Positions 26,000 through 27,099 of a stretch of DNA of 45,585 nt are shown here, in pieces. The notes beneath the pieces were generated by a model. It saw nothing but the letters and a program-made list of their open reading frames with translations, did not search any database and had not been told where the DNA came from. The position numbers and the translations under genes were made by a program. The DNA is from Candidatus Nanoarchaeia archaeon. Lineage in GTDB: Archaea > Nanobdellota > Nanobdellia > Pacearchaeales > GW2011-AR1. The stretch spans positions 1 to 45,585 of the forward strand of contig JAQTOY010000003.1 in assembly GCA_028713045.1 (NCBI GenBank), given 5' to 3'. The number at the start of each line of letters is the position of its first letter. Position 1 is the stretch's first letter.

Positions 26000-27070
26000 C
26001 TATCTTGATTCTGAAGAGTATTCTGGATTAAAATGTTCCCTTAATTTTCCCAATCCTTCACTTTCCAATTGCCTAATTCTCTCTCTTGTTAAATTTAGCA
26101 TTTTTCCAACCTCTTTTAATGTTTTTGGATTGTTTCCATTAAGTCCAAGGCGATGTATGAGAACAACTCTTTCTCTCTCATCAACCCCTCCCGAATTCAA
26201 ATATTTCCATGCTAATTCGTAATCCATAGCTTTTTCTACTAATTCAGATGGAGATTCTGTTAATGTGTCTTCAATACATGAATCATAATCAGTATCTTCC
26301 TCAGAATCAAAAACACCTAATCTTTGGCGATTTCTTGTTCTTATTAAAGTCTTTACAGGATCCTCATACTTCTTTTTTCTTTTCTTTTTCTTTACTTTAT
26401 TTCCATAACGAGTGCTATATCTTTCTAGAAGTTCCTCATCTGTCGGTTCCCTTCCAAGTTCAATTTTTAGACATCCCTCAAGTTGATCTATTTCTTGGCT
26501 AATTTGATGTGCATAGCTAGGTAAATGCAAATCATCTCTTTCACTTTGCAATCCCCGGGTTATTGATTGTTTTATCCACCCACTCGCATAAGTTGTGAAT
26601 CTATATCCTCGCCTCCAATCAAATTTTTTTGCGGCAATCATCAATCCTATATTTCCATAACCTGTTAATTCTTCTATTTCTACTCCAGTTCTCTCGCTGT
26701 AACGTGTTGCAATCCTAACAACAAGAAGTAAAGCAGATTGGGATATTCCTTGTTTTGCTTCGATACATTCTTGAAGATTTTCTCTTCTATGCCCGGCAAG
26801 TTTTTCTCTTGCTTGGATTAATTCTTCACTTTCCTCTTTAGGCGATTCTTTTCCAGCTTTTTCAGCCTCGAGATTATTAATCTCTCTTAGTAATCTTCTT
26901 TCTATTGAGTGGTATTGTTCAACTATTTTACCAAATCTTTGATTTCTTTCATAGGTTTCAGCCTTAAAACAAGTTCTTTCAGTATAACTGCCGCTTGGTC
27001 CTGATGCAAAAGGTGTTTGGTTTACCTGAGCTAAATAAAGCCCAATATCAAAAGGATTTCTTTCAGCCAT
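26000..27070 (-). CDS. Bacterial-type sigma-70 family RNA polymerase sigma factor
   Basis: Region 2: '[59 protein letters not shown]'. Region 3: '[14 protein letters not shown]'. Region 4.2: '[28 protein letters not shown]'. Start set at ATG 27070 ('MAERNPF') by the TATA spacing. Confidence 0.9.
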   Translation of the reverse strand: [356 protein letters not shown]

Positions 27071-27091
27071 TAAAAAATTCATAAAGAAACC

Positions 27092-27099
27092 TTTATAAA
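27092..27099 (-). promoter_or_regulatory. TATA box TTTATAAA, 22 nt before the sigma-factor ATG 27070
   Basis: Exact octamer and exact spacing, as for the housekeeping genes. Confidence 0.6.

Follow-up and report, generated by a model that had tools for sequence, protein, structure and literature searches.

What can a sigma factor do without its polymerase? Promoter recognition has two textbook solutions, sigma factors in bacteria and TBP/TFB in archaea and eukaryotes, and an archaeon that keeps a sigma gene under selection raises this question. The locus in point lies on contig JAQTOY010000003.1 of a Candidatus Nanoarchaeia archaeon, the first 45,585 nucleotides of which were analysed and are called the window hereafter. 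In the window, a gene for a sigma-70-family protein stands beside genes of the archaeal transcription machinery. When this protein and its two full-length relatives are aligned with bacterial sigma factors, the residues predicted to read DNA are kept, and those predicted to grip the polymerase core are replaced. The gene and the parts of its product are as follows.

26000..27070, minus strand: coding sequence of the sigma-70-family protein (356 aa), with the stop codon at 26000-26002
26768..27070, minus strand: N-terminal ~101 aa, specific to this family, with a degenerate region 1.2 and no region 1.1
26525..26767, minus strand: sigma domain 2, regions 2.1-2.4, residues ~102-182 (Pfam Sigma70_r2)
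26285..26524, minus strand: degenerate sigma domain 3, residues ~183-262 (Sigma70_r3, sub-threshold)
26369-26398, minus strand: allele-specific Lys run within domain 3, residues 225-234
26030..26200, minus strand: sigma domain 4, regions 4.1-4.2, with the -35 recognition helix LTRERIRQ (Pfam Sigma70_r4)

The minus-strand open reading frame (ORF) 26000..27082 comprises 360 codons from its first ATG, and a second in-frame ATG at 27070 gives the 356-aa product, which is also the public-database protein for this contig (P0001). Because the upstream ATG is out of frame in one orthologue (contig L005) and a TATA box is located 22 nt before the downstream one, ATG 27070 is the likely start codon, rather than ATG 27082, which is only 10 nt off the TATA box. 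The 356-aa frame from ATG 27070 and all peptide strings quoted in the initial annotation, made by a model from the letters of the DNA, are present in the translation.

The window protein scores 47 bits with Pfam Sigma70_r2 (PF04542; cut-off, 24 bits; orthologues, 52 and 38 bits), 47.8 bits with Sigma70_r4 (PF04545; cut-off, 24.1 bits; orthologues, 53.3 and 46.5 bits), and 74.4 bits with TIGR02937 (cut-off, 42.9 bits). The best NCBIfam model is RpoD_Cterm (154 bits), followed by the MzaA, RpoD, and RpoS models, with far lower scores for the RpoH, FliA, and ECF models; the NCBIfam equivalog cut-offs are all missed widely (TIGR02393, 153.9 versus 354 bits; NF004208, 142.3 versus 555 bits). In a phmmer search of the PDB, residues ~98-350 match RpoD/SigA chains (expectation values, 1e-34 to 1e-31), the alignment with E. 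coli RpoD covering RpoD 362-601 (~2e-34). The AlphaFold2 model, built from a 66-sequence alignment, is all-helical (mean predicted local distance difference test score (pLDDT), 79.7), and its best PDB matches in Foldseek are group-1 sigma chains in holoenzyme structures, with which it aligns across ~350 columns; its low global TM-score is expected, as a free model with several domains is here matched against a sigma factor stretched over the polymerase. By its domains 2 and 4, the window protein is a member of the sigma-70 family, as originally annotated, and it is not an equivalog of RpoD, RpoS, or MzaA. The by-eye likeness to RpoD regions 2 to 4 that the annotation had reported is borne out by profile for regions 2 and 4, with Sigma70_r3 (PF04539) remaining below its cut-off of 25.3 bits in all three alleles (15.2, 17.7, and 12.7 bits).

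In an exhaustive HMMER scan of 1.84 billion cluster representatives, only two relatives were found at full length, including the N-terminal ~100 aa: P0121 (372 aa, 43% identity) and P0122 (369 aa, 39% identity). The remaining matches are bacterial sigmas with at most ~40% identity over residues ~100-350 only. An exact look-up of the window protein gave no record. P0122 is NCBI MBS3075083.1 from Candidatus Pacearchaeota (GCA_018304145.1; taxonomy, Archaea, Nanobdellati) and is encoded on the 58.7-kb contig L003, where the gene order is that of the window; the same locus occurs on the JGI contigs L004, L006, and L009, with a sigma gene identical to that of L003, and P0121 is encoded on the Logan contig L005. 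The three alleles compared throughout are accordingly those of the window, L003, and L005. The N-terminal stretch common only to these proteins has no Pfam match, and PF00140 (region 1.2), carried by nearly all listed bacterial homologues, is absent from it even at E = 10. The stretch contains a remnant of the bacterial YLxxI motif of region 1.2, with which Y12-L13 and I/V16 of the window protein align, an insert of ~16 aa, long helices (residues 32-72 and 82-128 in the AlphaFold2 model; pLDDT, >84), and the invariant family-specific motifs PFA..P, RN...G.I, and ERRL. The view that the N-terminus is unrelated to region 1 is therefore right as to region 1.1, which is absent, and goes too far as to region 1.2, of which a degenerate form with YLxxI remains. 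Region 1.1 keeps free sigma-70 off DNA. In domain 3, only the first helix matches the Sigma70_r3 profile, the model has helices at residues 185-250, and the Foldseek alignment runs through. The Lys run, which the initial annotation had set between regions 3 and 4, is actually inside region 3; it is found in the window allele only, not in L003 or L005, and sits in a low-confidence loop of the model.

The three archaeal alleles were set against 64 bacterial group-1/2 sigmas at the 82 columns for which conservation among the latter reaches 85% or more (residue numbers of bacterial positions are those of E. coli, assigned via the PDB phmmer alignment). All three alleles keep 40 of the 82 columns, and 19 columns are lost in all three. 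The kept residues include T583, R584, E585, R586, R588, Q589, and E591 of the -35 helix, in which LTRERIRQ is invariant; L384, L386, V387, A391, Y394, G408, N409, G411, L412, K418, and F419 in the core of regions 2.1-2.2; and F427, T429, Y430, A431, W434, I435, Q437, and R441 in the centre of regions 2.3-2.4. The lost residues include N383 and R385 of region 2.1, most of region 1.2, and the core-binding positions Q406 (G/G/E) and E407 (Y/Y/D), whose conservation among the 64 bacterial sigmas is 97% or higher and which E. coli genetics has shown to be required for core binding, as the classic sites of contact with the beta-prime coiled-coil. Elsewhere in region 2.2, L402 is E/N/N, D403 is kept in two alleles and is E in the window, and N409 and M413 are kept. 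W433, which forms the wedge where the bubble begins upstream, is replaced in all alleles (G/F/Y), as are R448, I450, R451, V454, and H455 at the boundary of regions 2.4 and 3.0, which reads the extended -10 element; T440 is T in the window and L003 and M in L005, and R423 and Y425 vary between alleles.

As aligned here, the -35 recognition residues R584, E585, R588, and Q589 are present in all three alleles, and the window protein lacks part of the core-binding residues expected of a conventional bacterial sigma factor. That no allele has Q406 or E407 speaks against binding to a bacterial core polymerase in the usual way. No bacterial polymerase subunit was found on the 45.6-kb window or on L003, both of which carry archaeal Rpo7 and Spt4. 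Because the DNA-reading helices are kept while the polymerase-gripping residues are replaced, the protein may be a domesticated, sequence-specific DNA-binding regulator in archaeal transcription that acts through the sigma-4 helix-turn-helix (HTH) and perhaps through sigma-2. We favor this reading tentatively, as one that is quite possible and yet somewhat short of probable. The protein is probably no longer a classical initiation factor.

The same residues can be read as an adaptation to another polymerase. In that case, the protein would bind the archaeal RNA polymerase, with its remodelled region 2.2 placed on the Rpo1 clamp coiled-coil, which is homologous to the beta-prime clamp helices, and would modulate or redirect initiation, either by serving as an archaeal sigma or by competing with TFE or Spt4/5. 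Constraint in this fast-evolving protein is strongest in region 2.2 and domain 2, the replacement of L402, Q406, and E407, which contact beta-prime, fits a re-tuning to a different coiled-coil, and the invariant N-terminal motifs suggest a new interface. Archaeal initiation is, on the other hand, complete with TBP/TFB/TFE and needs no sigma (PMC7289017), and we consider such binding unlikely. The wider proposition, that a bacterial sigma has been re-tooled for docking on the archaeal RNA polymerase, or for some other direct involvement in archaeal promoter selection, appears to us distinctly unlikely. If it were true, this would be the first sigma working with a eukaryote-like polymerase, and its rapid evolution and replaced beta-prime contacts would be the record of adaptation to the new partner.

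How the gene has evolved was examined against its surroundings. Between the window and L003, 19 syntenic neighbours have 64-94% protein identity (Rpo7, 89%; PIN, 80%; ScpA, 85%; S27ae, 94%), with Nei-Gojobori nonsynonymous divergence (dN) of 0.025-0.27 (median near 0.09) and a ratio to synonymous divergence (dN/dS) of 0.03-0.23. For sigma, the corresponding values are 38-39% identity, a dN of 0.58, and a dN/dS of 0.46, so that its amino-acid change proceeds at ~6 times the rate of the neighbours, whereas its proportion of synonymous differences (0.61) is within theirs (0.52-0.67). Among the three allele pairs, identity is 38-47% and overall dN/dS is 0.48-0.55; by part, dN/dS rises from its minimum in domain 2 (0.21-0.50) to its maximum in the region 3.2 linker (0.5-1.4), the least constrained stretch. 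The ORFs of all three lineages (356-372 codons) are nevertheless intact at a synonymous divergence of 0.9-1.3. In a neutral simulation with the base composition of the window, only 0.1% of ORFs were still intact after 0.1 substitutions per site, and after 0.2 not one of 2000 was. Since three diverged ORFs remain open against near-zero survival in the simulation, the gene is not drifting freely, and a pseudogene is ruled out. The initial annotation had judged the gene intact and probably functional, and had named disrupted orthologues as a sign to the contrary; no such disruption occurs in the three full-length alleles.

These rates also bear on the possibility that the gene is a recent passenger under relaxed selection, without specific function and heading for loss. 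A dN/dS of ~0.5 with a six-fold excess of amino-acid change, the existence of only three alleles in ~15 billion proteins, the absence of the gene from the nearest outgroup, and the degenerate domain 3 would all be expected of a passenger. This account is largely refuted by the three open ORFs at the divergence given above, and is opposed also by the 40 of 82 bacterial-conserved positions that are still invariant and by the fully host-like GC content at third codon positions (GC3); we regard it as highly improbable.

The borders of the divergence allow another account, in which old divergent alleles were recombined as a swapped cassette into a conserved locus and are not fast-evolving orthologues. 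DNA similarity between the window and L003 is 75-85% in both flanks and ends sharply at the borders of the ORF, within which alignment is confined to ~130 nt at its end and ~15 nt at its start. Codon identity at identical residues is 0.56 for sigma, between the 0.63 of the neighbours and the 0.49 of saturation (~0.50 expected). The proportion of synonymous differences in sigma is, by contrast, ordinary for the locus, the databases searched contain no further alleles or donors, and what still aligns is no more than the stretches under the strongest constraint. An exchange of alleles is thus, in our estimate, very unlikely.

Rapid change might instead be the mark of an arms race, if the protein were an effector that acts on a bacterial partner or host and redirects its RNA polymerase as phage-encoded sigmas do. 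To our knowledge, the characterised DPANN hosts are other archaea; moreover, Q406 and E407, and W433 as well, are replaced in all alleles, neither a signal peptide nor a secretion-linked neighbour was seen in the ORF translation and the Pfam matches of the neighbours, and no viral relative exceeds 36% identity. What speaks for an effector is the very fast amino-acid evolution, sharply limited to the sigma ORF, the full retention of the -35 and core -10 reading residues, and the fact that DPANN archaea are generally symbionts (PMC8204110). We hold this to be the most improbable of the accounts weighed here.

Neighbour joining on the sigma2-4 region alone places the three archaeal alleles in one clade (50 of 50 bootstraps); their terminal branches measure 0.25-0.31, and the median for the bacterial sequences is 0.057. 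A viral origin was also considered and rejected; in viral contigs, no protein is nearer to sigma than 36% identity. The two neighbours that bound the gene are as follows.

25541..25969, plus strand: PIN-domain gene (Pfam PIN_9), convergent with sigma and bounding the insertion; its product is 80% identical to that of L003
27197..27980, plus strand: rpo7 (RpoE') and spt4, divergent from sigma and sharing an intergenic region with it (Pfam SHS2_Rpb7-N plus S1; Spt4)

On the divergent side, the order is rpo7-spt4-S24e-S27ae, as the initial annotation had it (rpoE'-spt4-rps24e-rps27ae), and all four neighbours are confirmed by Pfam; Rpo7 and Spt4 are 89% and 87% identical to their L003 orthologues. 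Farther genes on the contig encode archaeal/eukaryal-type PheRS alpha and beta, Elp3, GltX, and ScpA. The order on L003 is Elp3, GltX, ScpA, S27ae, S24e, Spt4, Rpo7, sigma, PIN, methyltransferase, BacA, amino-acid kinase, and PheRS. The sigma-rpo7 and sigma-PIN junctions recur in the NCBI metagenome-assembled genome (MAG), the JGI contigs, and the Logan contig, and contamination or chimerism is excluded because synteny is conserved in a Pacearchaeota MAG and in the independent JGI and Logan assemblies. The composition break that the annotation had considered as a sign of bacterial provenance does not exist at sigma, whose GC content (0.352; window genes, 0.23-0.40) and GC3 (0.20; median, 0.25) are within the host range. 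The neighbours scanned near sigma include no anti-phage MZA genes. A link with MZA defence, or a toxin-antitoxin pairing with the PIN gene, was likewise dropped for want of support from profile matches or neighbours.

A metagenome scan for the 27-nt promoter block described below yielded contig L007, in which rpo7 and the block are followed by ~150 nt of unrelated spacer and the 3' end of the PIN gene. No remnant of sigma was found in this spacer by tblastn or blastn. The Rpo7 of L007 is 78% and 74% identical to those of the window and L003, respectively, and since it is farther from both than they are from each other (89%), L007 is an outgroup. The most economical interpretation is that sigma was inserted once, in the common ancestor of the window, L003, and L005, and we infer the direction at this locus to be a gain; L007 may instead have lost the gene cleanly. 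For the proposal of binding to the archaeal polymerase, this history cuts both ways. Sigma and rpo7-spt4 have an intergenic region in common, which would suit such a role; the adjacency to RNA-polymerase genes is, however, one historical insertion common to the three alleles and hence not independent evidence of a functional link. Because the outgroup does without the gene, sigma is not needed for basal transcription.

Two elements of the intergenic region are pertinent to the expression of sigma.

27092..27099: palindromic TATA box TTTATAAA, 22 nt before the sigma ATG 27070
27084..27110: promoter block of 27 nt, AAAAAAGTAGATTTATAAAGGTTTCTT, which does not vary among the related loci, whether or not sigma is present

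The spacing of 22 nt is counted from the last TATA base to the A of ATG 27070. The octamer TTTATAAA occurs 25 times in the window, versus 9.5 +/- 2.8 times in shuffled sequences, and a match of at least 7 of 8 positions ending exactly 22 nt before the start is found in at least 13 of 48 genes, including pheS, gltX, scpA, S24e, S27ae, PIN, and elp3. Leaderless transcription at this spacing is evidently the norm predicted for the window genome, and the sigma gene conforms to it; sigma is probably transcribed as a leaderless mRNA from this TATA box. Transcription toward sigma is plausible because the upstream AGTAGA is purine-rich, like that of scpA and other genes.

The conservation of the region has another owner. 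A stretch of 30 nt (ATAAAAAAAGTAGATTTATAAAGGTTTCTT) is identical in all three alleles, and its 27-nt core is identical also in L007, which lacks sigma, upstream of rpo7, and in contig L008, upstream of aIF5A. In L003 and L007, the rpo7 ATG is 25 nt from the same TATA box on the opposite strand; in L008, aIF5A is located on that other strand at the 22-nt spacing, with nothing on the side of sigma. Because the block is equally kept without sigma, its conservation is owed to the opposite-strand gene, rpo7 or aIF5A, and the sigma gene is placed by these comparisons on the back side of a strong, conserved rpo7 promoter. Of the canonical leaderless promoter initially ascribed to sigma, the geometry common to at least 13 genes stands, and the conservation of the block belongs to the rpo7/aIF5A side.

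Several further observations were made on promoters of this kind. The 27-nt block lies at 11363-11389 of L008, 917-943 of L007, and 27084-27110 of the window; read on the strand of the downstream gene, it is AAGAAACC-TTTATAAA-TCTACTTTTTT and precedes different highly expressed genes, rpo7 and aIF5A. Such identity is unusual for archaeal promoters at this genome divergence. In the window, a 73-nt insertion (~27126-27198), absent from L003 and L007, lies between the block and the rpo7 start codon (27197) and is flanked by an 8-nt direct repeat, TTTAACAT, at 27118-27125 and 27191-27198; given this insertion, the window rpo7 has either a leader of ~75 nt or a new promoter. A second candidate for a TATA box common to divergent genes is found in the 60-nt intergenic region (38868-38927) between an Asn-synthase-like gene and a methyltransferase gene, which has one TATA-like box only, TTTATAAG, at its centre, with the methyltransferase ATG 22 nt away.

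Taken as a course of events, the proposed regulator would have arisen as follows. In the ancestor of a small clade of Pacearchaeota, a group-1/2-type sigma-70 gene of bacterial origin would have been inserted once between rpo7 and the PIN gene and inherited vertically since then, its leaderless mRNA being made by archaeal TBP/TFB from the back side of the palindromic rpo7 TATA box. Selection has kept the protein in spite of very fast evolution, with the sigma-2 and sigma-4 folds and the exact -35 helix retained, and with the loss of residues by which bacterial sigmas hold the beta-prime coiled-coil, wedge open the -10 element, and read the extended -10. Without region 1.1, the protein would be freed from auto-inhibition, and the constraint on its former core contacts would be relaxed.

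Several points weigh against a regulator of this kind. Sigma-70-type promoter matches number 81 in 18 kb of the window, versus 79.8 +/- 9.2 in shuffled sequences, and TTGACA occurs 26 times in the whole 45.6-kb window, versus 25.8 in shuffled sequences; the -35/-10-like motifs whose presence the initial annotation had contemplated are thus not enriched within the window, which counts also against binding to the archaeal polymerase. For a dedicated regulator, a dN/dS of about 0.5 is on the high side, and it could reflect diversifying selection in a conflict. An acceleration in situ and a replacement by old alleles are, moreover, not separable, because synonymous sites are near saturation. Finally, the kept region 2.2 helix (GNxGLMxAxxKF) and the residues of the -10 pocket are superfluous for a plain HTH regulator, and hint at a retained protein partner or at binding of single-stranded DNA.

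Outside the sigma locus, the contig has other features of its own. At 41890-43668, the minus strand encodes a full DnaG primase of bacterial type (with CHC2 zinc finger, DNAG_N, and Toprim domains), another bacterial-style information-processing gene, which is followed at 39609-41885 on the same strand by a 758-aa ORF with a domain of the RNase_H_2 superfamily. A 1.8-kb stretch (21627-23414) that is missing from L003 abuts tRNA-Trp (23417-23489), the only match in an Rfam scan; it contains a 386-aa ORF without a Pfam match and a SET-domain gene (22857-23378), and may be a small integrated island. At 33854-35492, three tandem paralogous ORFs (152, 153, and 178 aa) correspond to a single copy in L003, to which they are 83%, 66%, and 27% identical, pointing to a local tandem expansion. 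At E <= 1e-4, Pfam gives no match for three large ORFs (440, 428, and 1514 aa) at 51-7764.

Sigma genes in DPANN archaea have been described before. Sigma-70 genes (fam00359) were reported in DPANN genomes and are especially prevalent in Woesearchaeota; mis-binning was excluded there by the phylogeny of co-encoded proteins, and no anti-sigma factors were detected (Castelle et al. 2021, Front Microbiol, PMC8204110). The sigma-like genes in some DPANN bins that the initial annotation had mentioned were already in print in that paper. The window gene resembles fam00359, set beside it by its published description, in being a bacterial-type sigma-70 on a bona fide DPANN contig next to archaeal markers with no anti-sigma factor nearby. 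The published work concerns mainly Woesearchaeota without locus-level analysis, whereas the lineage described here is a three-allele Pacearchaeota lineage with its own N-terminus, an extreme rate, an empty-site outgroup, and lost core contacts.

In comparison with RpoD, SigA, and RpoS, the window protein has in common domains 2 and 4, the fold over ~350 columns, TRERIRQ, Y430, W434, Q437, and R441. It differs from them in having no region 1.1, in the degeneration of regions 1.2 and 3, in the replacement of N383, R385, Q406, E407, W433, R451, and H455, and in its place on an archaeal contig with no bacterial core polymerase among the window genes. MzaA of the MZA anti-phage system has similar C-terminal sigma domains (NF041931, 149 bits; PADLOC MzaA, 93 bits), but only positions 461-704 of the 726 in the profile match, the 149 bits compare with a cut-off of 800 bits, and the window protein has neither the N-terminal half of MzaA nor adjacent Mza genes. 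Phage-encoded sigmas are likewise members of the family outside a bacterial chromosome and often evolve fast; viral matches, however, reach at most 36% identity over residues ~108-350 only, without the N-terminal region, and the window locus is core archaeal chromosome. The functional analogue in archaea is TFB, which with TBP recognizes promoters and recruits RNA polymerase (PMC7289017), and to which the window protein has no kinship in sequence or fold beyond a generic helical HTH.

With one insertion, an empty-site outgroup, three divergent intact alleles, and a clear residue pattern, the locus is a clean test case, and the residue pattern leads to testable predictions on DNA binding and the protein partner. 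The presence of sigma factors in DPANN archaea is already known; what is new in comparison with the published systems is the locus-level detail and the rate anomaly, that is, a three-allele Pacearchaeota lineage, its six-fold acceleration, the empty-site outgroup, the back-of-promoter arrangement, and the pattern of kept and lost residues.

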